NCBI RefSeq assembly: GCF_022846255.1
Contig: NZ_AP025682.1
Source of the DNA: Escherichia coli
GTDB lineage: Bacteria; Pseudomonadota; Gammaproteobacteria; Enterobacterales; Enterobacteriaceae
Strand: one strand, 5' to 3'
DNA: 64,000 nucleotides
The position numbers and the translations under genes were made by a program. Positions within the stretch are counted from its first letter, which is position 1, and each line of letters opens with the position of its first letter. Positions 547-19,592 of the stretch are shown one piece after another. The notes under the pieces were generated by a model. That model was not told where the DNA came from, did not search any database, and saw nothing but the letters and a program-made list of their open reading frames with translations.

Positions 547-1440
547 ATGTACTACTCAAAGTTTCTTGAGAAACACAAATCCCCCCTCAGCCACGCACAA
601 TGGTTGCGCTTGCGCTATATTGAGCGCCAGCTACTGTGGGAACGAAAAGTCACTTCGCGCATGATTGCTGAAGAGTTTGGCGTCTCGGCGCAACAAGCTC
701 GTACTGATGTAAGAACCTATATGGAGGTCGCTCCAGGCAATGCTATTGAGAAGGGGGCCGGCCGAAAAGGGTATTTCCCCAGTACGACGTTTACGCCTGT
801 TTTGCTGGGAGACAACGATCTGGTCTGGCGTGCGACGGTAGAATTTCAACCGCCGCAAGCGGCCCACGCGCAGGAAATCCCGCTCATCCATCGCGCCGTG
901 CATAGCCGCACGCTGGCAATTTTTTTGTCAGCAATCGAACAGAAAGGACAAGTAAAAGTGACTTATGCGTCAATGGAAAACCCGGAAGGCATATCTCGTA
1001 CACTAAGCCCTACGGTAATTATCACCGTTAACGGGCGTCAGCATGTGCGAGCCTATGACTGGGGAAGTTCGGCGTTTAAGGACTTTGTTTTGGCGCGATT
1101 TCTGGACTCGCCGGAACTGATTGTTCCTGCACCCGCCCCGCCACGCAAAGATACCGCGTGGGAGGTCATAATCCCCGTGCGTTTTATCGCAAATCCAACA
1201 CTAAACAAAGCGCAACAAGAGGTAATTAAGCGGGACTATTTACTTGAACCCTCTGAATTCAACATTCGTGCACCAATGATTTTTTATTTATGCCCTGAAA
1301 ACAATCTGCCTAAAACAGATGATGAATATGCACAAGCTACTGACGCCAGCAGCCACGGCCCCTTTATCTACCCTGTTCTAGCTGTGCACGCCCAAACAGG
1401 GGAGCCTATTCATAAGTACCGCCATGCAGGTGAGAGATAG
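547..1440 (+). CDS. wHTH + WYL-domain transcriptional regulator (BrxR/CapW-like)
   Basis: The N-terminal segment ...VTSRMIAEEFGVSAQQARTDVRTYMEV... looks like a winged HTH. The central segment VKVTYASMENPEGISRTLSPTVIITVNGRQHVRAYDWGSSAFKDFVLARF fits the WYL-domain pattern (beta-rich, R.Y..... F.L.R). A hairpin at 1477-1503 follows the stop. Confidence 0.55.
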   Translation: MYYSKFLEKHKSPLSHAQWLRLRYIERQLLWERKVTSRMIAEEFGVSAQQARTDVRTYMEVAPGNAIEKGAGRKGYFPSTTFTPVLLGDNDLVWRATVEFQPPQAAHAQEIPLIHRAVHSRTLAIFLSAIEQKGQVKVTYASMENPEGISRTLSPTVIITVNGRQHVRAYDWGSSAFKDFVLARFLDSPELIVPAPAPPRKDTAWEVIIPVRFIANPTLNKAQQEVIKRDYLLEPSEFNIRAPMIFYLCPENNLPKTDDEYAQATDASSHGPFIYPVLAVHAQTGEPIHKYRHAGER

Positions 1441-1948: not shown

Positions 1949-2818
1949 TCAATCAAGAGGGATGGTCCACATTGACGTATCAAAATCGATCTCTGACCAG
2001 CGAGCAAAACGTAGCTCACTGGAGCGAATAAAGATAAGCAGAGTGAGTTCCGTTGCCCAGCGGGTTAGCGGCCTGCCGGTATAGCCGTCTATTTTCTCAA
2101 GTAACTCAGGGATGCGCTTTAACTCCAGCGCCGGACGATGCTGTCGATTACTGGAAGCAACCGCCCCCGCCATCTCTTGTGCCGGGTTATAATCAATTAA
2201 TCCACTTTGCACTGCATAACGCATGATGGCCGTGGTGCGCTGTTGAAGGCGGGAAGCCACTTCAAAACGTCCAGATTTCTCCACGGCTTTAATGGGAATT
2301 AACAGATCGCGGGTGCCCAGTTCAGCAATATTGCGAGCAACAATTGTTGGGAAGATATTGTCCTCCAGGCTCTTTTTTCCACGATTAGCATGATCTTCCG
2401 ACCATTTTTGGTTGGTTACGAGCCACTCTCTGGCAACCTTCTCGAAAGTAATAATCTCTTTCGCCTGCTCTTCTTTCACAGCACGTTTATGCTCACGAGG
2501 ATCGATACCAGCAGCGACCAGCTTTCTGGCCTCTTCCCTTTTCTTCCGCGCATCCGCCAGCGAAACATCCGGGTAAACGCCGAACGCCATCAAATGTTGT
2601 TTACCACCAAAACGGAAACGAAATCGCCAATACTTTGAACCGCCAGGTTTTACAAGTAAAGACATGCCGTCGCCGTCAACAAGTGAATACTCTTTCTCCT
2701 CAGGTTTTGCAGGACGAACTTTAGTATACGTTAGGGCTATAGTGGTCTTCCTTCCATTGGTATCTCGTGAGTATACAAGCAATATCGAATCGGCAAATAT
2801 ACTTATAAGTATACTCAC
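1949..2818 (-). pseudogene. P4-type tyrosine integrase, inactivated (start codon lost, C-terminal catalytic half deleted)
   Basis: It aligns by eye to the intact island integrase (e.g. RFEVASRLQQRTTAIMRYAVQSGLIDYNPAQEMAGAV vs RLEVASRLQQRTTAVMRYAVQNGLIDYNPAQDMSGAI). The position matching Met1 (MALT...) is ATA at 2738-2740 (IALT). Homology stops at ...SEIDFDTSMWTIP, before the HxxR/Y catalytic region, where the IS fragment begins. Confidence 0.8.
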
Positions 2819-2903
2819 AAGCCTGTTGATGTGGGTTGAGTCAGGTTGACTTCAGTTGAGGAGAAAAGCTGGAAAAGCCTTGCGTAGCGCGGATTTCAGG
2901 CAT

Positions 2904-2927
2904 AAAAAAAGACCTCAGTTGAGGTCT
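2904..2927 (-). terminator. rho-independent terminator (displaced native leuX terminator)
   Basis: An 8-bp stem AGACCTCA/TGAGGTCT with a run of 7 T on the minus strand, lying immediately after the partial tRNA 3'-end repeat. Confidence 0.55.
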
Positions 2928-2940
2928 ATTTACATACTTT

Positions 2941-2963
2941 TGGTGCGAAGGCCGGACTCGAAC
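2941..2963. repeat. distal att direct repeat: copy of the leuX 3' end
   Basis: TGGTGCGAAGGCCGGACTCGAAC matches the 3' end of the tRNA at 21030-21053 (TGGTGCCGAAGGCCGGACTCGAAC) except for one missing C. Confidence 0.85.
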
Positions 2964-2990
2964 ATATTAATTATCCCGTTGTATTTAAGG

Positions 2991-3200
2991 CTATTTTATC
3001 AAAATCATTATTGAAGTACCATCATTAATACCATCATAGGTATTGTTCTCCTTTGGCAACAGTTCTTTGATATCGAAATACTTTAACGAACTTTTTATGA
3101 CATCATACTTTGAAGAAAAAATCACATACTGATTTTCATCCAGTACATCTTGCAAGACAAGGTATAAAACAGGGACTACGATTAAAAATAGCAAAGTCAT
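2991..3200 (-). CDS. hypothetical small protein with N-terminal hydrophobic helix
   Basis: The ORF alone (69 aa, MTLLFLIVVPVLYLVLQ...). No recognisable family, and the region is very AT-rich. Confidence 0.2.
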   Translation of the reverse strand: MTLLFLIVVPVLYLVLQDVLDENQYVIFSSKYDVIKSSLKYFDIKELLPKENNTYDGINDGTSIMILIK

Positions 3201-3685
3201 TCACTAAATGAATTCAAAATCAGTGATGTTCTTATCTGCAAGAATATAATATATTTAAAAGATTATAAGCAATATATAAATAATAATATAGCTTTAAAAA
3301 AACACACATGAATTAGAAGTTAAATACATTAATTAAAGAAACAAATAAGTAAGAATTTTGTTTTTAAATAACTCATGCAAACGCATCGTTTATTTATATT
3401 AAAGGAAAATGATGAAATCCAATCTAAATTTAAATAGCTACATTACAAACGAATAGAAAAAGAAGCATTTTCCATGTTAAACTACTATCTTGGTGAAGAC
3501 AGGGGGTATAGCCTTCTGCGGTAGCCTACGCTCTTCGAATGCAAAGCAAGAAAATAACCTTTATAATCAAATTGTTATGCAATGCGCTTGTAGAGCAAAG
3601 GTATCTTAAACGAATAGGTTTAACAGTTAAAGCCTCTTTACATAGGCTGAACAAGGGCAGTACTTGAAAATGATAAAATTGGGGT

Positions 3686-5371
3686 ATGTTTAAAATTATG
3701 AATGCCCATAGTTTAGAGATGAGAAAAGAGTTAGGAGCATATTATACTCCAAGTGCTCTTAGTCAAGTGATGTCAGATTGGGCAATTAGAAGACCAACTG
3801 ATAAAATACTTGAGCCAAGTTTTGGAGGCTGTGGCTTTTTAGAAAGCTGTGAAAAGAGCCTCATGGAGATAGGCTGCATAAACCCAATGGAAAATTTATT
3901 TGGGGTTGATGTAGACCAAAAAGCCTTTGATACTCTCAAAAAAAAATATGGGCATTTATTAATAAAAAAACATTTCATTTTAAGTGATTTCATTAACGTA
4001 TTTCCAAAAGATTTTGGCATTGAAGATTTTGAGGTTATCATTGGGAACCCTCCTTATATCTCTATGCATAATATGAGTTATGAACAAAGGAAGTCCTGTG
4101 AAAAAGTTTTTGCTGACTCACCTTTTAAAACAAAAACATTAGGACGCAATGCAAGTCTTTGGGGGTTTTTCTTACTCCATGCATTAAGCTTCATTCGAGA
4201 AAATGGACGAATAGCGTGGGTATTACCGAGTAGTTTTTTAAATGCCTATTATGCGAAAGAGCTTATAAGAATTTACAAAAATCATTTTAACCATCTAAAA
4301 ATAATAAAGATAAATGAAAGACTTTTCAAAAATGAAGGTGCCGATGAAATGTCAGTACTTTTTTTATGCGATGAGTTTCACAGGACACCTATCAATAATG
4401 GATACGTTTCAATTGGATTTGCTGACACATTAAATGAACTAACCAGCATAATGACTGGAACTAAAGAAAACAAATTAAATAGCTCTGAAAATTACAAATA
4501 TAATATATTAGATATTGACACATTAAATGTGATATCGTCTATAACAGAACATAAGTACAGTTTAAAAATACAGGATATTGCTGATATAAAGATTGGGATG
4601 GTAACCGGCATGAACAACTTCTTTATATTGGATCAAAATCAAATTTTAAAACATAATTTAGACAATAAACATTTTAGACCAGTTATTTCACGATTTTCAC
4701 ATTTGAAGGGAATTCACCACACATTAAAAAGACATACGAAGTTAATTGCAGACAATAAAAAAGGATTGCTATTACACGTCAGTCCAGATGATTTATATGA
4801 AAAACATAGTCCGTTGAGAAAATATTTATCACAAGTTGATAGAAAAGAACGAGTCAAAAACCGCACATTCAAAAAACGAAAAAAGTGGTTTCAACCAGAT
4901 GATGGTATTTACCCAGACGCATTTTTTTCATATATGGTTCATGAGTTTCCCAGAATGATATTAAATAAAGGGAAAGTTAACTGCACTAACTCAATACATC
5001 GTATCTTTTTCAAAGATATAGCATCTAATAAATTAAAAAAAGCATGTTGCATATCTCTTTTATCAACATTTTCACAACTTTCTGCCGAACTTGAAGGTCG
5101 GTCATATGGCTCAGGTGTGCTAAAAATAGAGCCTACCGCAGGAAAGAACATATCATTCTTAATTAAAGATGATTTAATACACGAGTTAAGCAACTTAAGT
5201 AAAGAAATAGATCAATTGCTTTTAAATAATGAAACAAGCAATGCCACTGCTTTAGTTGATAAGTTTTTTGTTGATAAGGGACTAATTAGCTTAGATGAAT
5301 TGAAAAGTCTTAAAAAAGGGTTATTCAGATTAAGAAAAGATCGATATAAAGGGGTCAAAAATTATGAGTGA
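3686..5371 (+). CDS. N6-adenine DNA methyltransferase, gamma class (Eco57I/TaqI-like) with its own C-terminal target-recognition domain
   Basis: Motif order is GAYYTP (aa 17-22), then the AdoMet motif I EPSFGGCGF (aa 43-51), then the catalytic motif IV NPPY (aa 121-124). A C-terminal TaqI-like specificity signature is present: IKIGMVTGMNNFFIL. Confidence 0.85.
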   Translation: MFKIMNAHSLEMRKELGAYYTPSALSQVMSDWAIRRPTDKILEPSFGGCGFLESCEKSLMEIGCINPMENLFGVDVDQKAFDTLKKKYGHLLIKKHFILSDFINVFPKDFGIEDFEVIIGNPPYISMHNMSYEQRKSCEKVFADSPFKTKTLGRNASLWGFFLLHALSFIRENGRIAWVLPSSFLNAYYAKELIRIYKNHFNHLKIIKINERLFKNEGADEMSVLFLCDEFHRTPINNGYVSIGFADTLNELTSIMTGTKENKLNSSENYKYNILDIDTLNVISSITEHKYSLKIQDIADIKIGMVTGMNNFFILDQNQILKHNLDNKHFRPVISRFSHLKGIHHTLKRHTKLIADNKKGLLLHVSPDDLYEKHSPLRKYLSQVDRKERVKNRTFKKRKKWFQPDDGIYPDAFFSYMVHEFPRMILNKGKVNCTNSIHRIFFKDIASNKLKKACCISLLSTFSQLSAELEGRSYGSGVLKIEPTAGKNISFLIKDDLIHELSNLSKEIDQLLLNNETSNATALVDKFFVDKGLISLDELKSLKKGLFRLRKDRYKGVKNYE

Positions 5372-7673
5372 AGATATTCTTTTTTTGAAGGATAAGATGA
5401 AAGCCCTCCTGGATAATGAGGCTCTCGATTATGATAAAGTATTAGAAACAGCAGTAAAAATCACCGAAAAAGACAACAACAATATTAGATTTTCTGTAGA
5501 TGCGAATTTAGTTAGAAGATTAGGTGAGCAGTTAGTCGCTAAAAAAACTACTGCTGTCAGTGAATTGGTGAAAAATGCTTATGACGCAGATTCGACATTA
5601 GTAAATGTATATTTCGAATTGAACGAAGCAAATCCTCGAATAGTCATATTCGATGACGGCACAGGTATGTCAAAGGAAGATATTATCAATGGATTCATGC
5701 GAATAAGCACAAGTGAAAAAGAAGATAACTCTGTTTCAGAACGATATCAGAGACTAAGAGCAGGTAGAAAAGGTATTGGGCGTTTTTCTACACAGCGATT
5801 AGGAAATTATTTAAAAATAATTACCAAGCAAGAAAATGAAGAGTTAGGATATTTAATAGAAATTAACTGGCAGCAGTTTTCAAAAAAGAAAAATATATCC
5901 TTCATTGCTAACACTATCTCAAAAATCGATGTGGATTTCATTCATGGAACAAAAATAATAATAGAAGATCTGAATGATAAAGATTGGTCTGATGGGAACA
6001 TAAAAACGGCTTATAAATATATTAAGAGCATTATAAATATTGCCCCAAGCGAGACAGATCCAGGTTTCCAAGTAAAGTTCTATTATAAAAATGCCAATGG
6101 CTATGAATTAGTTGCAGATGAGAAAACTGAAATTTTTTCTGATAGTGATGCTCATATTACAGCAACACTTGAAAATGGAAATGCTGTAGTGAGAGTTAGC
6201 AGTGAAACCCTTGGCATAAAAAATGAAAGCATAGATGTATGGTATGATGAAAAAAATAACATACGAAAATTCTCACATATAAACTCTCCAGTAAAGCTTG
6301 ATGCATACTATTTCTCATTAGCAACAGTTAACTCCAGAAAACAAGCGGCATATTTACGTGAAAATGGCGGAATAAAAATCTATCGAAATGGATTCAAGGT
6401 TTCTCCTTATGGAGAGCAGTATGATGACTGGACGGCTCTTGATGACTCGGTTCGAAGGAGAAAGATATTACCCCCTCATGGTAATCAAAACTTCTTTGGA
6501 CACGTCAAAGTTGAAGACCTAAATGGAATAGACTTTGAAGAAACGTCCTCAAGGGAAGGTCTGATTCATACCGATGCCTTTCAAGAACTTCGCCTCTTTG
6601 TATATAAAGCACTGACGGCTGCGGTAATAAGAATTAGTGAAGCCAGAAATATAAAAATAAATCCAAATGACCGTAGCTATGTTAAAGAAACTAAACCAAC
6701 AATATCAGTCAAAGATAAATTAAATATTGTATCTGAAACGATAAGCTCGGTTAGTAAATTGGTAGATGCAGCAACATCTGTTGATGACGTTTCAAGTGAT
6801 GGTGTCATTAATAACATTGAAGATAAAAGTATAAGAAACAAAATTATTGAAGATCTCCATGAAGCCGCAGATGAGCTAAAACAAGCGAGTGTGATATCTC
6901 AATCTTTAATCGATGAAATTGAGCTTCTTAGAGTGCTTGGCGCTATGGGCCTTGCTATTGGTGAGTTTACACACGAAATAAATTTATCAATAACAAGTTT
7001 GAGTATTAACGTTCAAAACCTTAAACAGTCTAAATTATTAGAGGAAGATAGAGACTCTGCTCTAAATAGCCTTGAAAATAATATTGCAACATTAAAATCA
7101 TTTACTAAATTTTTTGACAGTACTATACGTGAGAATGTAAACAGAAATAAGAAAGTTATTGAGATAAGAGACTCTATTGAGCCATTTTATGAATCGATGA
7201 AACCAATAATAGAACGCAAAGGAATTCAGTTTGCAATACATTATGAAGGTTATGAACTTTTTACGAAGCCGATTCATGTTTCAGAGCTATATTCTGTATT
7301 TATAAATCTCTTTACGAATGCATATAAAGCAATACTTCGTTCTGGAACAAATCCACGAAAAATGTCTTTAACTGCGAAAAAAGATAGTGAAGATATAATT
7401 ATCCGATTCGAAGATAGCGGTGATGGAATTGAACCTGCAAATAGAGAAAGAGTTTTTGAGCCTTTCTATACAACAAGTACACCATCAGGACCTTTTGAAA
7501 GTGATGATTTATCATTAAAAGGAATGGGATTGGGGTTATCAATCGTACGTGATCTCGTTGAATCCATGTCTGCAGAAATATCTATAGTTGATGCATCCGA
7601 TGGTTTTACAACGTGCTTTGAGTTGAGAATTCCAAAAGCTGATGATAAGGAAATACCAGATGACATCTATTAA
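5364..7673 (+). CDS. double-GHKL protein: N-terminal MORC/MutL-like ATPase module + coiled region + C-terminal histidine-kinase core (H-box, N, G1, G2 boxes)
   Basis: N-terminal module: ELVKNAYDAD (N71, D74), DDGTGM (aa 97-102), GRKGIGRFS (aa 134-142). C-terminal module: IGEFTHEINLS (H537), INLFTNAYKA (N652), EDSGDGI (aa 683-689), GMGLGLSIV (aa 720-728). No predicted TM segment. The start overlaps the methyltransferase stop by 8 nt. Confidence 0.7.
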   Translation: MSEDILFLKDKMKALLDNEALDYDKVLETAVKITEKDNNNIRFSVDANLVRRLGEQLVAKKTTAVSELVKNAYDADSTLVNVYFELNEANPRIVIFDDGTGMSKEDIINGFMRISTSEKEDNSVSERYQRLRAGRKGIGRFSTQRLGNYLKIITKQENEELGYLIEINWQQFSKKKNISFIANTISKIDVDFIHGTKIIIEDLNDKDWSDGNIKTAYKYIKSIINIAPSETDPGFQVKFYYKNANGYELVADEKTEIFSDSDAHITATLENGNAVVRVSSETLGIKNESIDVWYDEKNNIRKFSHINSPVKLDAYYFSLATVNSRKQAAYLRENGGIKIYRNGFKVSPYGEQYDDWTALDDSVRRRKILPPHGNQNFFGHVKVEDLNGIDFEETSSREGLIHTDAFQELRLFVYKALTAAVIRISEARNIKINPNDRSYVKETKPTISVKDKLNIVSETISSVSKLVDAATSVDDVSSDGVINNIEDKSIRNKIIEDLHEAADELKQASVISQSLIDEIELLRVLGAMGLAIGEFTHEINLSITSLSINVQNLKQSKLLEEDRDSALNSLENNIATLKSFTKFFDSTIRENVNRNKKVIEIRDSIEPFYESMKPIIERKGIQFAIHYEGYELFTKPIHVSELYSVFINLFTNAYKAILRSGTNPRKMSLTAKKDSEDIIIRFEDSGDGIEPANRERVFEPFYTTSTPSGPFESDDLSLKGMGLGLSIVRDLVESMSAEISIVDASDGFTTCFELRIPKADDKEIPDDIY

Positions 7674-8763
7674 CCTACTTTATATCGATGATGATCAGCC
7701 TCAGCAAGTAAAGGGTTTAATTGAAGCAATAATCAGTAAAGCGAGTTTTGATTTAAATATAACTCATAAACCGCCGACGAAAATGAGTGAAATAGCCATA
7801 GAGTTGAGACAAGGTTATGATGGTATCATCATAGATCAAAAACTTGACAGCTTTGTTGAGGGAGTAGAACCAGTTGATTACTTTGGTGCCGCGTTAGCAC
7901 AAAATTTGCGAACACTCATGGCGGGTAAGTCAGATAATATATCTTATAAGCCAATAATTTTACTCTCTCTCGAAAGCTTATTAATTGAATATTATAATCC
8001 CGATTCAAGCTCGCATGATCTATTTGATTTAGTTTTGAGTAAAAGCATATTAGAACAACCAGAATTGTTAGAAAAAAAAGTTCACTTAATAAAATCTATT
8101 GTGAATGCTTACAAACGTGCACATTCGGAAGACTCGTTATATCAATTGCTTTCTCTGAGCAGTAATTATTCATTGCTTGATAAAAGATTTGAAATATATA
8201 TTTCTCAGTATGATAAAGATATACATAAGCTCGTCACATCCATACACTCCACACTTCTGAGAAGTAGTGGCATGTTAGTTTCTGAGATAACTTTGGCAAC
8301 CAGACTGGGTATTAATATTGAAGAATCGCCAGACTGGCACCAAGTAATTGGGCACCTTGAGGAATATAAATACAATGGCATATTCTCTGATTATTATAAA
8401 AGATGGTGGTGGGCAGATGTAGAGTTGTGGATAAATAAAAAGCTTAACTGCCCAATAATTAAAGGATTAACCTCAGAAAAAAGAGTGGAGATCATCAAAG
8501 AAAAACTTGGCTTAGAACGATTGATGCCAATTCATAGCGTACATCCAGGCCAAAGCACCAAGTTTTGGGTTAATTGTATCATCAGTAAAGAACCTCTTGA
8601 TACAATAGATGCTCTTCGTGCATCATCTATGGAATTAAAACCTTGGGAAGATGATAAATACCTTTCAATTAAAACAGTGTTAGAGAGACGGGCCGAAAAA
8701 TATAAAGTACATCCAGAAGATAGAACAAAATTGGATCGAATTCGGGCGAGGTTTAAATTATAA
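7660..8763 (+). CDS. receiver (REC)-like domain protein with uncharacterised ~230-aa C-terminal domain
   Basis: Numbering from the MTSINLLY start. The REC signature residues are in the right order: LLYIDDD (D10-12), GIIIDQKLD (D59), PIILLSL (S103), LVLSKS (K128). The C-terminal part (…YKRWWWADVELWINKK…) matches nothing I recognise. The ORF overlaps the upstream stop by 14 nt. An alternative start at 7642 is possible. Confidence 0.5.
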   Translation: MTSINLLYIDDDQPQQVKGLIEAIISKASFDLNITHKPPTKMSEIAIELRQGYDGIIIDQKLDSFVEGVEPVDYFGAALAQNLRTLMAGKSDNISYKPIILLSLESLLIEYYNPDSSSHDLFDLVLSKSILEQPELLEKKVHLIKSIVNAYKRAHSEDSLYQLLSLSSNYSLLDKRFEIYISQYDKDIHKLVTSIHSTLLRSSGMLVSEITLATRLGINIEESPDWHQVIGHLEEYKYNGIFSDYYKRWWWADVELWINKKLNCPIIKGLTSEKRVEIIKEKLGLERLMPIHSVHPGQSTKFWVNCIISKEPLDTIDALRASSMELKPWEDDKYLSIKTVLERRAEKYKVHPEDRTKLDRIRARFKL

Positions 8764-9506
8764 TGAACAATAATACAACTTTGTTAGACGATATGTGTAG
8801 GCTCAGGGACTTTTTATATGATAGCCGCATATGCCCAGATATTAATCCTCTCAACCGTTTAATCAGTAAACTTAATGCAAATCTCCACTCCGAAACAGGG
8901 GAGGACTTTGAATACTCTTTAGACGATTTAGTATTTTATCTTAGCGAAAAATCTGGAACAATTTGTCCGACCCAAATTACACCCAAAGAAAACCCTATTG
9001 AAATACATTTGGAACTTATATTAAAAAGTGAAGGCCCTTATGAATTTTCGAAGATTAAAGAACTTTCAGGGCAATTACGACTTAAAGCTGAGTGGATCAA
9101 TGACACAACAGAAAAAATTGAGATAAAAACATCACATAGTGCTTGGCATTTTGATTATCATGTTCCTCAAATGGGGGATGGCGTAAATTCATTTACTCAT
9201 CCTCAATTCCATTTACAAAATGGAGGAAACAGGCTGACTGATAATTTAAATGACTATGGAGAGTTAATGATTCTTGATGCTCCAAGACTACCTTTACCTC
9301 CTATGGATGTGATATTAGCCATTGACTTTATTATTTCAAATTTCTTTGGTTCTATTTGGCAACAAGCATTATGTGATTCAGAATACATTGATGTAGTTAA
9401 AAGAGCACAAAAAGCATGGTGGAAACCTTATTATGAAGGTATAAGTCAACACTGGTCTGGCAATGGCTCAGGAATATCCAATATCCTAATTCCAAACCTT
9501 CTGTAG
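8763..9506 (+). CDS. hypothetical protein, last gene of the operon (His-rich segment)
   Basis: ATG overlaps the upstream TAA (TAATG). 247 aa. Contains SAWHFDYHVPQMGDGVNSFTHPQFHLQNGG. No family recognised. Confidence 0.5.
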   Translation: MNNNTTLLDDMCRLRDFLYDSRICPDINPLNRLISKLNANLHSETGEDFEYSLDDLVFYLSEKSGTICPTQITPKENPIEIHLELILKSEGPYEFSKIKELSGQLRLKAEWINDTTEKIEIKTSHSAWHFDYHVPQMGDGVNSFTHPQFHLQNGGNRLTDNLNDYGELMILDAPRLPLPPMDVILAIDFIISNFFGSIWQQALCDSEYIDVVKRAQKAWWKPYYEGISQHWSGNGSGISNILIPNLL

Positions 9507-9716
9507 TGTATCAAAATCTGTTAACCATCTCCAATTACGAATAGCAATATTTATATAAAACTAATTTTTTATTTTAAACAACTTCAGCAAGGGCTAACTC
9601 TCAGCATCTCCTTCGGTGATACTTTGAGTTGCTCCTTGTTTTTTCGCCCTTTGGTTGAAAAAATTAAAAGCAAAACCAACCCTATACATTGACTTTTTCA
9701 GCATCTATCATATAAA

Positions 9717-9747
9717 TAAAATAAGCATAATGGACATGCTTATTTTA
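9717..9747. promoter_or_regulatory. 12-bp inverted repeat upstream of mobC (candidate oriT / mob promoter element)
   Basis: TAAAATAAGCAT-n7-ATGCTTATTTTA, about 25 nt before the mobC-like start. Location is typical for small-relaxase oriT, but no nic consensus was recognised. Confidence 0.3.
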
Positions 9748-9771
9748 CTTTACTATATGAAAGGAGTTCAT

Positions 9772-10185
9772 ATGAATGATAGGAATCATACTTTTAATAA
9801 GTTCGAGCCATTCAGAAGTTGTAGCTATGAAAATTTTACTTCTGCTAAAACACTCTCCCAGCAGACACGTTCTCATTGTATTAGTATCAGATTAAATGAT
9901 GCCGAGTTATCTTACGTTGATGGCTTACGAGAAGATCTCAACCGTGCTGTTTGGATACGTATGTCAGCATTGAATCGTCTCCCTTCCAAAATTCCTGAAA
10001 TAAATCTAATTGTCTGGAAAGACCTTGCCAAAGCATCTCAGAATCTGAATAACCTCGTTCAGCATCTCAACACTAAATCACACGATAGTCCTTTTACTAT
10101 CACCGAAATTTATACGGTACAAAAAAGAATAAAAGCACTAAGAGATGCCCTTCTGTCAGCAAATCGATCTGTCAGTGATAAATAA
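9772..10185 (+). CDS. MobC-like relaxosome accessory protein
   Basis: AAGGAG lies 6 nt upstream of the ATG at 9772. IRLNDAELSYVDGLRE... followed by a helical C-terminus is the usual MobC/ribbon-helix-helix pattern. The stop overlaps the relaxase start (TAATG). Confidence 0.6.
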   Translation: MNDRNHTFNKFEPFRSCSYENFTSAKTLSQQTRSHCISIRLNDAELSYVDGLREDLNRAVWIRMSALNRLPSKIPEINLIVWKDLAKASQNLNNLVQHLNTKSHDSPFTITEIYTVQKRIKALRDALLSANRSVSDK

Positions 10186-11372
10186 TGAAAGGGATGCAAA
10201 AAATCCGCAGAGGAAAGAGTTTTGCTGGTGTCGTCCTCTATGCGTTAAAGCCCGGTTCTCATCATAAAAAAGACCCTATCGTGATCGGTGGAAATATAAC
10301 GATAGTTGGCAATGCCGCTAAAGATCTGATCGCTGAATTTGATAGCACCAAACAGCTTCGCCCTGACGTGCAAAAGGCTGTTTGGCACAACTCGCTTCGC
10401 TTACCTAAAGGTGAATCACTAACGGCTAAACAGTGGTCTGAAATAGCAGATGATTACATGTCCCGCATGGGCTTCTCTGAAACGCATCTCAGATGCTACG
10501 TCCTACATGACGACGAAGATGGCCAGCACATCCATATCATCGCCAGCAGAGTGTCTCTTGATGCCGGAAAGCTCTACCTCGGCAGGAATGAGAACCTGGC
10601 AAGCACGAGAATAATTCAGCAACTTGAAAGAAATTACAATCTGACAAGAACCAAAGGGCCAGGAGCTAAAGCATCTACATCTTCTCTTTCCTCTAAACCG
10701 AAACATAAAAAATCACGTAATGAGGCTATGTTAGAGGAGAGAACTGGTGAACCATGCCCTAAATCCATCATCCAAAGGGCTATAGATTCGATAACATTAA
10801 ATCCTATAGCAATTGATGACTTCGTTGAAAAGCTGAATAGCATAGGGATTACGGCGAAAAGCAATATTTCTTCAACTGGCAAGATGAATGGATTTTCCTT
10901 TGAATGCAAAGGTGTTGTGTTCAAAGCTTCCCAGCTTGGCAAGAAGTATAGTTGGAAGAACCTGGAATCAATGATTTCAATGAATTACAACTCACACATT
11001 GGTGATGAAAAACCTGTCATCCCTGAACCTGCTGCCCATCGCAGCAACGAAGCTGTCATACCTATAGTGGAAGACTATTCTGATGAAAAGATTTACCCTG
11101 AGATAAGGGTACCCTTACCAAGACCTGACACAGCGCCCACAAAACCTACAAGCATGACAATGCGTTGGATCGCAACCATACCTTATCTTGTGAGTGTTAT
11201 TAGCGCACTTAAAACGATGCGTATCCCCTTTCTAAAGGCGTTCAATGGCCCAAGGAAGTTCTTTTCCGTGTCCATGATTCACCTGTCCTCTGTAAGCCTG
11301 AAACAGACCAAAACGAATAATTTCAAACCAAAAAGTTCCCACCAAAAGGCCCACAAGCCCCTTCTCCCCTGA
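10185..11372 (+). CDS. mobilisation relaxase (MobA/VirD2-type relaxase/nuclease domain)
   Basis: N-terminal FAGVVLYALKP (candidate catalytic Tyr). Conserved VWHNSLRLPKGESL block. Histidine triad YVLHDDEDGQHIHIIASRV. The C-terminal third is low-complexity and may be degenerate. Confidence 0.75.
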   Translation: MKGMQKIRRGKSFAGVVLYALKPGSHHKKDPIVIGGNITIVGNAAKDLIAEFDSTKQLRPDVQKAVWHNSLRLPKGESLTAKQWSEIADDYMSRMGFSETHLRCYVLHDDEDGQHIHIIASRVSLDAGKLYLGRNENLASTRIIQQLERNYNLTRTKGPGAKASTSSLSSKPKHKKSRNEAMLEERTGEPCPKSIIQRAIDSITLNPIAIDDFVEKLNSIGITAKSNISSTGKMNGFSFECKGVVFKASQLGKKYSWKNLESMISMNYNSHIGDEKPVIPEPAAHRSNEAVIPIVEDYSDEKIYPEIRVPLPRPDTAPTKPTSMTMRWIATIPYLVSVISALKTMRIPFLKAFNGPRKFFSVSMIHLSSVSLKQTKTNNFKPKSSHQKAHKPLLP

Positions 11373-11580
11373 TTTCTCCACAGATAAACGATCGTTATAA
11401 TCGATCGATTTATTTATATTGATAGTCAATAACAATCAATAGGTAAATAATCGATCGGTACAAGCAATTTGCTATGTCCTTAGAAGTGTTCAAAATGTAC
11501 TTTCATGCATAAATCGGATAATAGGTTGATTTTACTAGCCTATTTTTCTATCCACGTATCGAACATGCAGGGACTGAAGT

Positions 11581-12171
11581 ATGAGATATCTCATGATGAA
11601 GCGTGTAATGTTAGCAATCCTTCTTCCGTTTATTGTTGGATGTTTATTTGGTGCTAAAGCATTATCAGAGTATTGGGTTGTGTGGTTTTTTGTTTGTGCA
11701 ATGTTGATGATCACAGCCTGGGGCGTGTGGTTAAAAAATAAAAACAGAGGTTCCAGCTTCAGCTACCTGAATGATAATGAAGATGGTGTATTTATCTACA
11801 AATTTCATAATCAAGAGATGCGTTTAGATAAAGCCAAAAAAGAGCTTTATTTAAAAGATGGGTTAAACGAAAAAACCTACACTTTTTCCGATGTTGAAAG
11901 CTGGGAATATAAAATTAGCACAGGTGGTCAGATCCTCACTTCAGGTCTTAACCCTACAACTAACTTGATTAACAATAAGATTCTTGGTGAAAACATTAAT
12001 GACACCGGCTTCTTTATCAAAGTTAAAGACATCAGAAACCCTGAGTGGCATATTCGATTCTTCCCTCAAGAAGGATCTTATAAAGATCAGAGGGGATTAA
12101 TTAGCTTAAAAAAACAGATGATGCAGTGGATGACCGTTTTTGACTTAATCGTAAATGCTGATACAAAGTAA
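11581..12171 (+). CDS. hypothetical membrane protein (two N-terminal hydrophobic helices, possible lipobox IVGC)
   Basis: ORF with N-terminal MKRVMLAILLPFIVGCLFGAK and YWVVWFFVCAMLMITAWGVWL. The soluble C-terminal domain is unassigned. Confidence 0.45.
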   Translation: MRYLMMKRVMLAILLPFIVGCLFGAKALSEYWVVWFFVCAMLMITAWGVWLKNKNRGSSFSYLNDNEDGVFIYKFHNQEMRLDKAKKELYLKDGLNEKTYTFSDVESWEYKISTGGQILTSGLNPTTNLINNKILGENINDTGFFIKVKDIRNPEWHIRFFPQEGSYKDQRGLISLKKQMMQWMTVFDLIVNADTK

Positions 12172-12182
12172 GGAAAACAAGA

Positions 12183-12473
12183 ATGAAAAAAACCATGCTA
12201 CTATTATTAGCTTCAATGTCGCTGACAGGTTGCAACAGTGAACCATCCGATGCAGATATTTCAAAAGCCATGCAGAGCTTTATGAGTGAGATGCATGGTA
12301 CCCTGAACTCGTCTAAAAAACTTGCGTGTAAAGATATAGAGAGTGATGGCAGTTATCTCTGCTCTGTAGAGTTCGATGCTAAACTTCCAATCGTGGGCCA
12401 TAGAGAATCGACGCTAGAATTAAAGTTTATTAAATCCGATGACTCCTGGAAAGCAATGGCTCCATCTAAATAA
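12183..12473 (+). CDS. small lipoprotein
   Basis: AAGGAA SD. Signal peptide plus lipobox MKKTMLLLLASMSLTGC. Confidence 0.6.
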   Translation: MKKTMLLLLASMSLTGCNSEPSDADISKAMQSFMSEMHGTLNSSKKLACKDIESDGSYLCSVEFDAKLPIVGHRESTLELKFIKSDDSWKAMAPSK

Positions 12474-12566
12474 ACTTAATTATATTTGACAATAGAAAAA
12501 TAGTACGTCATAGATAGTAAATTGATAACAACCAGTGGGTTGAGCCACTGGCTGTTATCCCAATGG

Positions 12567-12644
12567 TTAATACACGGATGTACTAACCACCATTAAAAGG
12601 ATAAACAACATCACCTTTAATGCACGGGAGCGTTTTTTAGACAT
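12567..12644 (-). CDS. 25-aa basic/hydrophobic peptide (MSKKRSRALKVMLFILLMVVSTSVY), candidate small membrane toxin
   Basis: Below the ORF-track cutoff; found by hand. AAGAAGGAG sits 6-7 nt upstream of the ATG. The peptide has a charged N-terminus followed by one hydrophobic helix. Confidence 0.35.
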   Translation of the reverse strand: MSKKRSRALKVMLFILLMVVSTSVY

Positions 12645-12730
12645 ACGCCACTCCTTCTTTTTCATCATCAACCTTATTGTTGGTGATGTTGCCTCTTTGG
12701 GCTGATGCAGATTATCATTTTAGAATACTA

Positions 12731-12757
12731 AAAGCATCCTTTCGGATGCTTTTTTTC
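12731..12757 (+). terminator. rho-independent terminator
   Basis: AAAGCATCC-tttc-GGATGCTTT followed by TTTTT. Confidence 0.6.
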
Positions 12758-12850
12758 GCCTTGAAAATATTAGCAAGATAATAATCCATAAAGGATAATA
12801 TAAAAACCAAAATAATATGCTACGGTAGTTGTTATAAAAATCACATAAAA

Positions 12851-13273
12851 CTACAGTCCATATTTTTTCCTTTTATCCTTCATCAATAATTCTCTTTTTA
12901 GGGTAGAAGCCTCATGTTTCCTTCTCTCATTAATATAGACTTTTTCGGTTCTACTACCATTGCTCACAATGAAATTGATAAGTGAAGAGCATACGTTTTT
13001 CATACGCTCTTTATCGAGCATGTCATTTTCAATATTATTGATATTGCAGTAATAAGAAAGTAGTAAAAAATTCAACACTACTTCCCTGTTTGAGAACGTT
13101 AGTTTTTCTATTTCAGGCTGGTATTTAATGTAGAACCCGGCACAAAACAGGTATGATTGTTCGATAATTTGTTGCTCTGAGAAGTCTGATTCAGAGAGTT
13201 TATCAACGAATCGATCAAGTAGAAGAAGATACCTTTCCATCAAATGAATATTTATTTTTTCCATAACATGCAT
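12851..13273 (-). CDS. hypothetical protein
   Basis: ORF only. The likely start is the second ATG (13264, MEKINIH...), which has AAGGA 8 nt upstream. Confidence 0.4.
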   Translation of the reverse strand: MHVMEKINIHLMERYLLLLDRFVDKLSESDFSEQQIIEQSYLFCAGFYIKYQPEIEKLTFSNREVVLNFLLLSYYCNINNIENDMLDKERMKNVCSSLINFIVSNGSRTEKVYINERRKHEASTLKRELLMKDKRKKYGL

Positions 13274-13357
13274 CCTTGCAATTTATTTTGCCATCCTGAC
13301 AATTAAATAAATACCATAATTATTAATCACGTCAATAGTTAAAACCTATCTATTTTA

Positions 13358-13756
13358 TTAAAGGTATTTTGCAGGTAACGGATTATTAAGTTCTTCAATC
13401 GTTATTTGTTTAAGGTGAGCATTATAAAGCCATACTTTGAACTGCTCTAAATAGCGTTCATTTAATGCCTTCAAAGCCTCATTTTCTGCTTCAAGTCTTC
13501 TAATTCGTTGAGAAGCCACTTTTAAATTAGCAGGTTTTACAGTATGTATTGCACCAGATTTGATAGTGGCCTTTTTCACACTGAAGCTTTCTGCAATCCT
13601 TACATGACTACTTAAGGATTGTCTTGATGGTCTTTTCCCAATAATCCTTACTAACCTGTCGCACAAAGCATCCCAGGTTAGTTTTTCATCTATAGACCAT
13701 GTGTTAATAACATCTACAATCTTCTTCTCATGATAACCATTTATATGCTTAGCCAT
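13358..13756 (-). CDS. small accessory protein of the recombinase module (coiled-coil C-terminus; TnpC-like position)
   Basis: Its start directly abuts the stop of the upstream recombinase gene (13757). RRLEAENEALKALNERYLEQF is a heptad-like segment. The call is positional only. Confidence 0.4.
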   Translation of the reverse strand: MAKHINGYHEKKIVDVINTWSIDEKLTWDALCDRLVRIIGKRPSRQSLSSHVRIAESFSVKKATIKSGAIHTVKPANLKVASQRIRRLEAENEALKALNERYLEQFKVWLYNAHLKQITIEELNNPLPAKYL

Positions 13757-15388
13757 TTATTCTCCTTTTTTTATTCTCTTATGGAATTCATACCATCTAT
13801 CAGCATTTATGTTCCCATCATTTTTATCATACAGTGTTCTTTTTGAAATTTTATCGTGAATTTTTGAAATCGTTTCGTTATCTAAACCAGAATTCTCAAT
13901 CGGATAATGTTCACACGGCTTAAACGCATATGAGTGCTTGCAGTAGCCATGTTTTGATACCAGTACTGCACCACTACTAAGTGAATCAAACTCATTAAGA
14001 ACCACCACTGGAATATCCTTTATTCTGTGCTCATTAACACACACTGATAACTTTTGTTCTCTTATTGCTTTAGACATTTGAAGATGCGATCTGTGGTCAT
14101 AAGAAAAATTTTGAGAAATAAGCTTACGTCCAGACCAGCGAGCAATACTAAACTCATCCATACCATTTATTTGAGCAAAAGTGTTGAGAAGATGCCTCAG
14201 TTGATGTGTTCTTAGCAAATATGGGCTACCATCATCATTTATATAACCATGTCTTTTAAATACATTTAAATATCCTTTTATATAATCAGAATCAACGATA
14301 TCAGTTTTAAAAAAATTCGTTGTAGGTCTGAATAACTTATCTAACATTTCCTTTTTATTTTGATTTAACTGTCCTTCAGTTAACAAGCAAAGCGCATTAG
14401 AATATTTGATTTTCTTCTCTCTATCATACCAAAAGAGATCTGGAGGTATATTTTCTTTAAGGGTTCCCATCGTTGAATTAGAGTAATTCTTTTGAATTTC
14501 AGCAGCCAATAATCTCGCTTGACTTGATAATTCTTTTAATCTGCTAATAGCCTTTTTTGCTACAGGTATCATTAAAGTTGGAATCCATTTTATATTGCCT
14601 TCATACCCTTTTGCTGAAAAAAATCTTAAACCGTATCTTTGAATGCCCTTTCCATCACATTCTGTAATTTCACAATCCACTGGCAAAGCTAAAATTTCCG
14701 ATATCCTACTCGGTGCACACATAAGTAAAGCAAGCACAGATGTAGTAAATATATCTCTTGACGATAATTGTTCATCCCGCTTTGAAAAAATCTCAGCAAT
14801 CGCAATAACTGATTTGATATCAGGCAATCTAGAATGGCCTTCCAGTGAAGAATCATAACCAGTCCAAGACTGAGTAATCCTATACCTAATTGGACTTATC
14901 CAAAATAAATAAGATGAGTTAGTCATCCTATTATCATTTAAAAATGAACTCAATTTCTCAAGTTCTTTCCCAATAGCAAATGCATGTGCTTTAGAATACT
15001 TTTCAGAGGCTATCCTTATGCATTCATCAAAGATTGAATTGTTGCAATAGTTTACATTAGCTTCCATATTGATTTTAAGTAAAACGAATTCGACAATCTT
15101 CAACATTGATAATGTTGAGTGTTTCGTCTTAGATTTATTGAATGAATGCACATGCAACATATATGCTTTAGCAAAATTAATAAAGCTATCATCTAAGCAT
15201 TCTTTGCTGTTTAGGTTGTTTTTTGAGTTAAACTTAGTAAACCTATATAAACCTTTCCATTTATTGCTTTCCCAAGAAGTTGTTAAATTATTATTAGAAA
15301 TAGTACTCTTACAAAACTCGATGAACTTAATAACATTATCGTGAGGGTTGTTTTTATTGCTTGGTTCAAAAATAAATATATTGTTCAT
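13757..15388 (-). CDS. tyrosine recombinase, third of trio (543 aa)
   Basis: Catalytic signature in order: CAPSRISEILAL (Arg), THQLRHLLNT (HxxR), NFSYDHR (Tyr). Overlaps the upstream gene by 4 nt. Confidence 0.7.
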   Translation of the reverse strand: MNNIFIFEPSNKNNPHDNVIKFIEFCKSTISNNNLTTSWESNKWKGLYRFTKFNSKNNLNSKECLDDSFINFAKAYMLHVHSFNKSKTKHSTLSMLKIVEFVLLKINMEANVNYCNNSIFDECIRIASEKYSKAHAFAIGKELEKLSSFLNDNRMTNSSYLFWISPIRYRITQSWTGYDSSLEGHSRLPDIKSVIAIAEIFSKRDEQLSSRDIFTTSVLALLMCAPSRISEILALPVDCEITECDGKGIQRYGLRFFSAKGYEGNIKWIPTLMIPVAKKAISRLKELSSQARLLAAEIQKNYSNSTMGTLKENIPPDLFWYDREKKIKYSNALCLLTEGQLNQNKKEMLDKLFRPTTNFFKTDIVDSDYIKGYLNVFKRHGYINDDGSPYLLRTHQLRHLLNTFAQINGMDEFSIARWSGRKLISQNFSYDHRSHLQMSKAIREQKLSVCVNEHRIKDIPVVVLNEFDSLSSGAVLVSKHGYCKHSYAFKPCEHYPIENSGLDNETISKIHDKISKRTLYDKNDGNINADRWYEFHKRIKKGE

Positions 15389-16710
15389 AATGCTCTCCAG
15401 GGATTGAATTTTTTACACGTTAAGCATTTCAAATCCTCTTTCGTATCTTCTAATAAGAAAAATGCATCTGAAACATACTTGATAAAAAAGTTCTTGTTTT
15501 CTTCAATCTCTATGCCCATAAGTATATTAGATAAGGGGTTAAAAAACGCACTTAGTCTCTTATCGATGTCATAAACGTTGTCAGGATTGTTTTTTATATA
15601 TATCATAGAAGAGTTTACTGATTTATGATCTAAGGCTTTAGCAATCACCTCAATTGAGGCTCCTTCGTTAGCCAGTCGACTTCCTAACGTATATCTGAAT
15701 CTTCTAGCATTAAGTTCTATATAGCTGTTAGTCCTTTCTGACCTAACATCGAATTTTGACGGAAAGTGTTTTAATAGTTTTGACATAACTGAATTTTTCA
15801 TATGGAAAAAATCTGTTGTTAAATCAGATAAAAAATCCTCAATCCTTTTTGTTTCCGTAATCTTATCTAAATTCATGAAGATTGGTAATTCGCCTCTATA
15901 GTTATTAATCCCAACACTGAATTTATCTTCAACAAACGCCTGATTTTGATTAATTAGCATTGATAAACTGTCATATAAGAACGGTTCTATCATTACCATA
16001 TTAAATTCTTTTCTGAAACATTTTCTTTGTTTTACTTTTGGTACATTCAAAAAGCACCCTCTCTCATTTTTAATGAGATCTTTAGCTTTTAGAGATATCA
16101 ATTGTAATGGCCTTCTTCCTGTTATTGCCAGCAAAAGGATATAACAATACAAAAAGCATTGAATTTTCTTCTCATGATAAAATTTTCCAACGGCGTTAAT
16201 AATGTTATTGAATTCCGTTTCAGTTAAAGGTCCTTTATTTGGATCTCGTCTTTTAACTGCATCTCCTGTTTGGTTTGGAATGATTTTTATTTTCTCCAGC
16301 ATTCTAATGGCAGTCGCATCTACCCCAGGGTAATTGAGATTTTTCCATTTAGTGATGAAAGCCTTAATTGAGTTTAGTTTGTAGTTTCTTTCTGAACCTA
16401 AATAAACATTCAATTGATATATTGCTTTGTCATCAATAGTATCGATGGTCATTGCACCAAACCACTTATAAAATAGATTGTTAATATTTTGTATATAAAA
16501 AGAACTATATTCAGACGCATAGTAAGCTAATGTTTTTAAGTAGCTAAGTTTCATTTTTGTAGGCATTCTATCTACAACTTTATGAGGGTATACGCAGTTT
16601 TCTTTATCAAGTTGCCATTTCTTATCTGACAGTTTGAAACTATATCTATTCATCTTAGCAAAAAAAATTTGCTCACTTTCAATACATTTTATTTCCACAT
16701 TAAACCCCAC
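15385..16710 (-). CDS. tyrosine recombinase, second of trio (441 aa)
   Basis: ITGRRPLQLISLK (Arg), ARRFRYTLGSRLANEG (xxR box), VNSSMIYIKN (Tyr). Overlaps the upstream gene by 11 nt. Confidence 0.65.
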   Translation of the reverse strand: MGFNVEIKCIESEQIFFAKMNRYSFKLSDKKWQLDKENCVYPHKVVDRMPTKMKLSYLKTLAYYASEYSSFYIQNINNLFYKWFGAMTIDTIDDKAIYQLNVYLGSERNYKLNSIKAFITKWKNLNYPGVDATAIRMLEKIKIIPNQTGDAVKRRDPNKGPLTETEFNNIINAVGKFYHEKKIQCFLYCYILLLAITGRRPLQLISLKAKDLIKNERGCFLNVPKVKQRKCFRKEFNMVMIEPFLYDSLSMLINQNQAFVEDKFSVGINNYRGELPIFMNLDKITETKRIEDFLSDLTTDFFHMKNSVMSKLLKHFPSKFDVRSERTNSYIELNARRFRYTLGSRLANEGASIEVIAKALDHKSVNSSMIYIKNNPDNVYDIDKRLSAFFNPLSNILMGIEIEENKNFFIKYVSDAFFLLEDTKEDLKCLTCKKFNPWRAL

Positions 16711-17905: not shown

Positions 17906-18030
17906 TTTGACCTCATTCTTTACAAATTAATATCACTCTCACTTATTAAATATATTCCAATTCAAAATAATTCAAATTTTTTACAATGGCTTTAGTTTAT
18001 TTGGTATATATATTAATGGCTTGAAAAAAT

Positions 18031-18048
18031 TTATTTGACGTCAAATAA
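18031..18048. repeat. perfect 18-bp palindrome TTATTTGACGTCAAATAA upstream of the recombinase trio
   Basis: Read directly. A related half-site TACGTCAAATAT occurs at 18142-18153. Confidence 0.6.
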
Positions 18049-18287
18049 ACAGGTACGGCTAGTATTGAGTATCCATACCCGATATTAAGAAAACCATCTT
18101 CAACCCTTATAGCAAAAGCTCTGCTAGAAAAAAGGTAAAGAATTACGTCAAATATACTTATTTTTCAGATACAAACTTTACAAAGCCTCTTTTTTTTCAA
18201 AGCCACTAAGTAAACTCAAAAGATCTCTAAATTCCTTTTTCTTAATACATTATCAAAAGTTAAAAAATCCATGAAGCAGCATTCCTG

Positions 18288-18491
18288 TTAAGCGACATGC
18301 TTTCTTGAATTTTCGATAATTAATTGAATCCATTCATCGATTTCGCTTTCTACAAAAGCGGTAGCACGAATACCGATCTTTACTGGCTGTGGGAACCGAT
18401 TTTGGCTGATAAGACGATAGATCCACGCTTTACCAAATCCAGTTTTCTTCATGACTTCTGGTAAACGGATGAGACGAGCTTGATTTTCCAT
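18288..18491 (-). CDS. AlpA-family DNA-binding protein (excisionase/regulator type)
   Basis: From MENQARLIRLPEVMKKTGFGKAWIYRLISQNRFPQPVKIGIRATAFVESEIDEWI, the typical AlpA/MerR-like HTH sequence. I rejected the longer ORF start at 18575. Confidence 0.75.
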   Translation of the reverse strand: MENQARLIRLPEVMKKTGFGKAWIYRLISQNRFPQPVKIGIRATAFVESEIDEWIQLIIENSRKHVA

Positions 18492-18611
18492 ATGTATGTC
18501 CTCTGTTGTGTCTACAGGGCTACAGTACAAATGAATTTCGAATGGATGAAGCGAGATTACGAACATCAGAGCCATCCCTGGCTCGAAACTATGAGTCTCT
18601 GGAGATTCATA

Positions 18612-19481: not shown

Positions 19482-19592
19482 TAATGCCACTCCGTTGTAA
19501 AAAGTTTTACTTCGTAATAGCACATAAATCGCAAATAAAAAAATGGCGTCTCAATTGGTTATTGAATACGCCATTTTACTCATAAAAATCAG

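Follow-up and report, generated by a model that had tools for sequence, protein, structure and literature searches.

Soluble histidine kinases in which an ATPase module precedes the kinase core have been described computationally. Bellieny-Rabelo, Pretorius and Moleleki defined in 2021, by computational means only, the families HEF_HK (PF19191) and Response_reg_2 (PF19192) (PMC8011034). The dominant architecture in that study was HATPase_c_3+HEF_HK+HATPase_c, found in 174 of 222 proteins; the proteins were shown to be soluble, and linkage to a receiver-like gene was 91.6% (PMC8011034). Restriction-modification (R-M) genes, mainly those of C5 methylases, Vsr and HNH_2, were enriched near these kinases, HATPase_c_3 was proposed as the sensor, and the family was proposed as a branch from the paraMORCs (PMC8011034). 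MORC and paraMORC ATPases are themselves known from R-M operons, and paraMORC1-5 are without kinase fusion (Iyer, Abhiman and Aravind 2008, PMC2292703). There is experimental precedent for a GHKL domain controlling a defence nuclease, in the type I-D Shedu protein VcSduA / paraMORC3 (PMC12137116), and the anti-phage two-component system Detocs (DtcABC) provides a precedent for a His-Asp relay in defence (bioRxiv 10.1101/2023.01.24.525353). Here we analysed a stretch of 64,000 nucleotides of Escherichia coli contig NZ_AP025682.1 (assembly GCF_022846255.1), hereafter the window, which carries a gene for a 769-amino-acid (aa) protein combining a MutL-like ATPase with a histidine kinase core, and compared this kinase and the genes around it with the systems above. 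We consider that the kinase has about an even chance of being the signalling ATPase-kinase of a four-gene, phosphorelay-controlled, R-M-like defence cassette, with a mechanism that we infer from the evidence given below.

With a length of about 5.8 kb the cassette is compact; it comprises in this order a methylase, the kinase, a receiver protein and an orphan protein designated X3 (Table 1). The end of the methylase gene overlaps the start of the kinase gene by 8 nt. Linkage was examined in 80 loci retrieved from a scan in which each species was represented by one genome, and hidden Markov models of the partner proteins were run on all open reading frames (ORFs) of 87 loci. Kinase, receiver and X3 genes followed one another on one strand in 84 of these 87, and the remaining three loci were cut at contig ends. 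The ordered trio was present in Proteobacteria, Bacteroidota, Acidobacteriota, Chloroflexota, Nitrospirota, Deinococcota, Verrucomicrobiota, Bacillota and the Candidate Phyla Radiation (CPR). An Eco57I-family methylase gene adjoined the trio in all 76 informative loci, that is, those with both flanks present, being upstream in 26 of them and downstream in the other 50. The quartet was also found within a P2-like prophage of Vibrio fluvialis, beside an integrase in Pseudomonas aeruginosa, and in a Bacteroidales metagenome-assembled genome (MAG) with the methylase gene relocated to the 3' end. Since the methylase gene may stand upstream or downstream yet is always adjacent, the linkage survives rearrangement, and its persistence in different phyla indicates joint action of the four products. 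The genes are linked at the level of translation and have been inherited as a group in many phyla. A small HTH_3 (controller-like) gene was present directly upstream of the kinase gene in 11 of the 80 loci (for example L006, 2502-2690). Upstream of the methylase gene of the window, a search for small ORFs revealed no controller ORF, and promoter and terminator matches were at chance level.

The sequence-only reading had described the kinase as one cytoplasmic polypeptide with two different Bergerat-fold ATPase modules. When the codons were checked, all the motifs it had quoted were found at the residues it gave, and Pfam, hhalign and alignment showed each half to be a real Bergerat-fold module whose catalytic residues are intact. 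The protein is soluble, as had been proposed; no membrane segment is present because the highest 19-residue Kyte-Doolittle mean is only 1.37. Relatives of the kinase number in thousands, and the ~770-aa architecture was found in at least 401 species-level genomes in the species scan. Phage genomes searched for the kinase yielded no full-length homologue. Residue conservation was assessed in an alignment of 26 relatives with 37-89% identity, from Gamma-, Beta- and Deltaproteobacteria, Bacteroidota and one archaeal MAG. Pairwise comparison placed the highest conservation in the N-terminal ATPase and in the YRNGF...SREG block, above that of the kinase core, which fits an engine and not a relic.

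The N-terminal module is, by sequence, a catalytically intact GHKL ATPase of the MutL/MORC branch. HATPase_c_3 of Pfam matched aa 63-187 with an E-value of 2.7e-27 (95.9 bits), and aa 42-206 matched the N-terminus of BbrUII/HgiDII restriction enzymes (NCBIfam NF050001, E 2.1e-27). When the family profile was aligned to E. coli MutL by hhalign, kinase residues 53-280 fell on MutL 16-244 with 95.7% probability (E 9.5e-9), and a search of PDB sequences matched the N-terminal part of the kinase to MutL and MLH1. Motif I residues E67, N71 and D74 (ELVKNAYDAD) and motif II residues D97, G99 and G101 (DDGTGM) were invariant. Motif III spans G134-R140, with GRKGIG being G134-G139, and G134 and K136-R140 were invariant; in motif IV (G195-T196), G195 was invariant and T196 was present in at least 90% of the sequences. 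The term 'MORC-like' used in the sequence-only reading can be upheld only as far as the MutL/MORC branch of GHKL proteins as a whole. The S5/transducer domain, by which MORC and paraMORC proteins are defined, is not demonstrable past its first ~40 residues. The MutL alignment covers just the start of MutL domain II (MutL 207-244, ~40 residues) and ends at kinase residue 280.

The middle domain contains the conserved-looking block YRNGFKVSPYGEQYDDW that had been pointed out earlier, located at aa 340-356, where Y340-F344, Y349, G350, D355 and W356 were invariant. Other invariant residues of the middle blocks were D232-F235, P370, H372, N374, N376, E393 and S396-G399. A profile of this domain (aa 185-455) found no relative in PDB or Pfam. 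The segment that follows, aa ~440-520, was the worst conserved of the kinase in pairwise comparisons. Across relatives SREG and the H-box lie 111 to 143 aa apart, and the stretch between them contains 19% Glu, 14% Lys and 9% Asp. Being variable in length and charged, this linker is a tether and not a fixed-register signalling helix.

By its sequence, the C-terminal module makes up a full kinase core of HisKA type, in which H537 is the predicted phospho-acceptor. HATPase_c of Pfam matched aa 641-759 with an E-value of 1.3e-25 (90.4 bits). The profile built from the 26 sequences aligned to the full DHp and CA domains of HK853 (3dge residues 24-247) with an E-value of 7e-16, and it aligned also across the whole DHp of CpxA and ZraS. 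Among PDB sequences the C-terminal half matched HK853, CpxA, ZraS and others, and aa ~520-760 matched many sensor kinases of NCBIfam. H537 (GEFTHEINLS) and E538 were invariant, as were N648 and N652 of the N box (NLFTNAYKA) together with K655, D684 and G686-G688 of the G1 box (EDSGDGI), and G720 and G722-G724 of the G2 box (GMGLGLS). In the F box, T704 was invariant and F698 was present in at least 90% of the sequences. The match to HEF_HK (PF19191) at aa 528-585 scored 19.8 bits, below the gathering cutoff of 24.1, and just 4 of the 26 relatives matched this model (best E 4e-4). The HisKA phosphatase motif, T or N at position H+4, is absent because this residue is a leucine (L541) in the window kinase and varies among the 26 relatives. 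PF19191 is likewise without this motif, according to a recent preprint.

The gene directly downstream of the kinase encodes, as judged from sequence and model, a genuine receiver domain whose acceptor pocket is intact. The structural model of the 367-aa protein is confident (pLDDT 88, pTM 0.87) and presents the (beta-alpha)5 fold of CheY-like REC domains along with their acidic pair, acceptor Asp, Ser/Thr and Lys. The pocket is formed by D10, D11, the acceptor D59, S103 and K128; among 50 homologues D59 and K128 were invariant, and D10, D11 and S103 were each present in at least 90%. Therefore, given the receiver fold and the conserved acceptor Asp, phosphotransfer from the kinase to this protein, the absence of which the sequence-only reading had named as evidence against its proposal, is plausible. 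With Pfam receiver models (E<=0.01), 49 of 50 receiver partners gave no match and one matched iREC ('inactive receiver') with an E-value of 0.0015. None of the 50 matched Response_reg_2 (PF19192) at the same threshold, the presence of this model in the library being without positive control. The 367-aa protein of the window itself matched no family of Pfam. The C-terminal two thirds of the protein form an output domain modelled with a pLDDT of about 90. It carries conserved Trp, Arg and Gly residues, one Cys (C306) and one conserved acidic residue, and a helix-turn-helix (HTH)-like segment lies at aa ~205-225 with the pattern E..LA.RLG[IV]...S.DW. The output domain had no family match and no relative among PDB structures. 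The best Foldseek matches of the receiver protein include the full-length NarL-type regulators RcsB and EvgA, with a query-normalised TM of 0.24 that stems mainly from the REC domain.

The methylase matched N6_Mtase, Eco57I and M_Eco57I_C of Pfam and MTase_II of PADLOC (PDLC03267, E 2.3e-89). X3 belongs to a family with 778 cluster representatives at 50% identity in 1.84 billion proteins, and among the 150 matches listed the length was 143-301 aa, mostly 240-270 aa. The residues H129, D131, H146, P147, H150, P174, R175 and P180 were invariant in X3 and H133, Y149 and G154-G155 nearly so, giving the pattern WHxDxH...HPxYHxQxGG...PRxxHPPxD. This arrangement of His and Asp suggests that X3 is a metal-dependent enzyme. 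No Pfam match was obtained with 50 members scanned and no PDB match by profile search; the AF2 model was poor, with only 7 sequences in the alignment, and a fold search with it gave no match. A comparison of X3 by hhalign with the HNH nuclease of a sister cassette, described below, was negative. A 2-His-1-carboxylate (dioxygenase-like) site of the HxD...H type was considered and left as speculation, the spacing being 13-17 residues and fold support being absent.

As for the mechanism, we infer that the N-terminal ATPase may serve as the sensor that drives autophosphorylation of H537, as the sequence-only reading had suggested. Like MutL, MORC and GHKL-Shedu proteins, this ATPase would dimerise or clamp on DNA in an ATP-dependent manner, and the clamp would report DNA that is without the mark of the methylase. 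The DNA-bound state would alter the kinase output, and the phosphoryl group on H537 would be handed to D59 of the receiver protein. The Trp/Arg-rich, HTH-like output domain of the latter could then license X3, a probable metal-dependent hydrolase or nuclease, or could itself target DNA. The methylase would protect self DNA and, being always of one family, may give sequence specificity as well. The assignments by NCBIfam, Pfam and PDB agree with one another and with the homology to MutL, and they count in favour of this reading, as do the invariance of both ATP sites and H537, the receiver fold and pocket of the partner, the conserved gene order, the resemblance to the BbrUII/HgiDII N-terminus and the nuclease that a sister cassette has in place of X3. 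The reading is supported also by the position of the cassette as low-GC mobile cargo in a slot that otherwise holds R-M systems. The more specific proposition, that the cassette represents an uncharacterised class of R-M-like immunity in which a MutL/MORC clamp reads methylation and a His-Asp relay activates a new family of metal-dependent effectors, is put forward tentatively and is in our judgement less likely than not.

Several points weigh against the view of the cassette as a relay-controlled defence system. PADLOC 2.0 and NCBIfam 20.0 do not recognise it as a defence system, and no recognisable nuclease domain was found in any of its components with Pfam, PADLOC, NCBIfam or PDB. A clean swap of the target-recognition domain, such as would mark the methylase as the only determinant of specificity, was not seen among close relatives, in which all four proteins diverge together. 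The variable charged linker argues against simple helical coupling or an obvious direct conformational relay between the two halves of the kinase. Literature searches found no experimental work on the architecture as regards defence, phosphotransfer or DNA sensing. Moreover, the HTH-like segment and the weak NarL-type resemblance of the modelled receiver protein fit a transcription factor equally well. The main rival explanation, unlikely in our estimate, is one of purely transcriptional two-component control, where kinase and receiver would do no more than set the transcription of methylase and effector genes in the manner of a C-protein-like timer in a new host. The N-terminal ATPase would in that case sense a cellular cue such as the nucleoside triphosphate level or DNA damage, and the receiver would be a DNA-binding transcription factor. 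This explanation is in essence the one put forward by Bellieny-Rabelo and co-workers, who proposed control of R-M systems (2021; PMC8011034), and the HTH-like segment as well as the presence of RcsB and EvgA among the best Foldseek matches agree with it, but the similarity to these regulators is weak (TM 0.24) and derives chiefly from the REC domain. A regulator receiver would also make the HTH_3 controller-like gene found in 11 of the 80 loci redundant, and it would leave X3, with its invariant His and Asp and its co-inheritance in every complete locus, still in need of a role.

The remaining explanations are less likely. The tight linkage of four genes carried as cargo of a mobile element could also be that of an abortive infection or addiction device, in which infection or loss of methylation is sensed by the relay, and the host is killed or arrested by X3, by the output domain or by both; Detocs, a two-component defence system, works through ATP depletion. 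We hold this to be improbable for the cassette, as the sequence-specific methylase is obligatory (76 of 76 loci), a hallmark of self/non-self discrimination by modification and not of infection sensing, and no known toxin domain was detected by Pfam or PADLOC. Still more improbable is that the C-terminal GHKL module is a second mechanical ATPase or a pseudokinase in a MutL/Hsp90-like machine, with the 'receiver' as a pseudo-receiver scaffold. The lack of T or N at H+4 (L541, in a variable position) could be read in this way, and so could the failure of 49 of 50 receivers to match a Pfam receiver model and the single hit to iREC (E 0.0015), but neither H537 and E538 nor the N, G1 and G2 boxes vary, the residues of the receiver pocket are invariant or nearly so, and such invariance in both proteins is not expected without phosphoryl chemistry. 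Finally, the possibility that the motifs are chance matches, which the sequence-only reading had itself raised, or that the ORF is an artefact of two fused genes, is negligible and is regarded as excluded: domain E-values of 1e-25 to 1e-27 (Pfam) lie far beyond chance, the ~770-aa architecture recurs in at least 401 species-level genomes, and the 99.9%-identical complete chromosome of E. coli TUM11353 annotates the kinase as a single coding sequence.

Table 1. Coordinates of the cassette genes, of the predicted domains of their products and of neighbouring features in the window.
Feature	Coordinates	Strand	Remarks
WYL-domain protein	547-1440	+	PADLOC WYL, E 1e-15
Integrase fragment	1949-2818	-	Arm-DNA-bind_3 and Phage_int_M, without catalytic domain
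Eco57I-family N6-adenine methyltransferase	3686-5371	+	561 aa; C-terminal target-recognition domain; first cassette gene
Double-GHKL kinase ORF	5364-7673	+	769 codons, intact frame; MutL-like ATPase and histidine kinase core
N-terminal GHKL ATP-binding domain	5550-5951	+	aa 63-196; predicted from HATPase_c_3, NCBIfam, hhalign and invariant motifs
Middle domain	5952-6653	+	aa 197-430; blocks DPGF, YRNGF..YG..DW, LPPHxNxN and E..SREG
Variable charged linker	6654-6914	+	aa 431-517; least conserved block of the kinase
DHp helices	6915-7118	+	aa 518-585; predicted phospho-acceptor H537 (codon 6972-6974), then E538
CA domain	7284-7640	+	aa 641-759; N648/N652, D684/G686/G688, G720/G722/G724; Pfam HATPase_c
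Receiver protein	7660-8763	+	367 aa; REC ~aa 1-132 and ~230-aa output domain; start overlaps kinase stop by 14 nt
Output domain of receiver protein	8056-8760	+	
X3, orphan protein	8763-9506	+	247 aa; candidate metal-dependent effector; start shares one base with receiver stop
Small ORF upstream of relaxase	9655-10185	+	
MobA/VirD2-type relaxase	10185-11372	+	
DUF4755 protein	11581-12171	+	
tRNA-Leu(CAA)	21030-21114	-	leuX island boundary

The cassette lies in a genomic island bounded by leuX. The GC content is 32-35% in the cassette and 32-37% in the island, and about 46-54% beyond the tRNA gene. E. coli TUM11353, with which the window shares 99.9% identity, is the sole carrier of the cassette among 5,426 complete E. 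coli genomes, and the island backbone (window 9586-21197) is common to many E. coli strains at 97.5% identity without the cassette. In E. coli A42 the same cargo slot holds an HNH endonuclease along with Dam-like and N6 adenine methylases; therefore the cassette occupies an exchangeable cargo position for R-M or defence genes. The cargo side of the island corresponds to window 2890-9586. The island has a MobA/VirD2-type relaxase gene with a small partner ORF upstream, and mobilisation of the island is therefore probable. Next to the tRNA gene there are three genes for tyrosine recombinases (15385-16710, 16700-17905 and 19593-20840), as well as a gene for a 543-aa 'DNA-binding protein' (within 13757-20840). 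On the other side there is an integrase fragment, probably a remnant, and a gene for a WYL-domain protein of the kind found beside defence systems. The left flank differs from that of TUM11353, where hsdMSR occupies this place.

Related cassettes are also borne on plasmids. Full-length relatives of the kinase at 25-28% identity were detected by tblastn against plasmids, and Campylobacter accounted for 41 of the 221 matching records. On the Campylobacter jejuni plasmid pTet, the kinase gene is accompanied by a response regulator gene and a convergent dcm gene. On a Bacteroides finegoldii plasmid, toxin-antitoxin genes flank a set that encodes the kinase, a REC-like protein of 209 aa, an HNH endonuclease and a methylase of Eco57I type; the 209-aa protein aligned to the receiver domain of the window family (hhalign E 4.9e-5). 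Thus, the design of kinase, receiver, nuclease and methylase recurs, with a recognisable nuclease at the place of X3.

If the relay works as proposed, the cassette would be a widespread defence module, present in at least 401 species-level genomes from many phyla. A phosphorelay, and not direct coupling of recognition to cleavage, would decide whether DNA is attacked, and this would place between recognition and attack a chemical signalling step that is lacking in any characterised R-M type. For histidine kinases, an ATPase that clamps DNA would be an input of a new kind; bacterial MutL/MORC-like ATPases would gain a defined signalling output, and two orphan families would gain a function. The cassette lends itself readily to testing, being compact, derived from E. 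coli and provided with clear targets for point mutation in E67/N71, H537, N652, D59 and H129/D131 of X3. The novelty is tempered by earlier in silico work, in which the domain architecture and the association with R-M genes were already published in 2021 (PMC8011034). The sequence-only reading did not recognise the input logic from characterised kinases, and the novelty so implied is not supported, since the architecture, the receiver neighbour, the R-M context and the idea of HATPase_c_3 as sensor were all in print by then (PMC8011034).

Comparison with known systems places the cassette between several of them. In common with the HEF_HK systems it has a three-part soluble kinase, an adjoining receiver-like gene and methylase or R-M genes nearby (PMC8011034). 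Unlike them, the window family is sub-threshold on PF19191 and its partners do not match PF19192; its methylase is always an N6-adenine enzyme of Eco57I type, whereas C5 methylases predominate there, and its invariant third partner, X3, was not described for HEF_HK systems (PMC8011034). By these sequence comparisons, the window family is a sister of the HEF_HK family and not the Pfam seed family. With MutL, MORC and paraMORC proteins the kinase shares an N-terminal GHKL module with motifs I-IV and an R-M neighbourhood on laterally mobile DNA, the methylase being present at 76 of 76 loci and the contexts including island, prophage and plasmid. Unlike paraMORCs, the ATPase of the window family is fused to a kinase core, and its partners are not SF2 helicases; the defining S5 domain was not confirmed in it by profile search or hhalign. 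Like HK853, EnvZ and CpxA, the kinase has the H-E dyad, the N, G1, F and G2 boxes and an adjoining receiver with the DD/D/S/K pocket, but its input is an ATPase and not a PAS, HAMP or periplasmic domain. Fixed-register helices couple the sensor to the DHp in classical kinases, whereas a hypervariable Glu/Lys/Asp-rich linker stands at this place in the window kinase, and, unlike in canonical systems, the output domain of the receiver and X3 have no known relatives.

Among defence systems, the cassette resembles Detocs in principle, in that both have a cytoplasmic kinase-to-receiver relay and travel as cargo of mobile islands. Detocs comprises a TPR-type sensor, a buffer receiver and a PNP ATP-nucleosidase effector, has no methylase, and acts by depleting ATP. 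Membership of Detocs was rejected for the cassette, as no PADLOC Detocs model matched the four proteins (E<=0.01) and no PNP domain was found by Pfam. Likewise rejected was membership of MADS: the methylase weakly resembles mad2/MADS2 (PADLOC E 8e-16; NCBIfam 24 bits, cutoff 720), and the cassette has none of the other mad genes, the mandatory MAD6-8 included. DefensePredictor lists a predicted, unvalidated system with HATPase and REC domains (PMC13092281). Set beside type II R-M systems, the cassette has a clear methylase, no known nuclease domain in the other three proteins, and in X3 a candidate for the nuclease. With VcSduA and the BbrUII/HgiDII enzymes it shares an N-terminal GHKL ATPase, which in those proteins governs a DNA-directed effector, although the window kinase covers just the first 170 of the 659 positions of the BbrUII/HgiDII profile. 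In VcSduA and BbrUII/HgiDII the nuclease is fused to the ATPase, whereas in the window cassette a putative His-Asp relay and two more proteins would stand between ATPase and effector.

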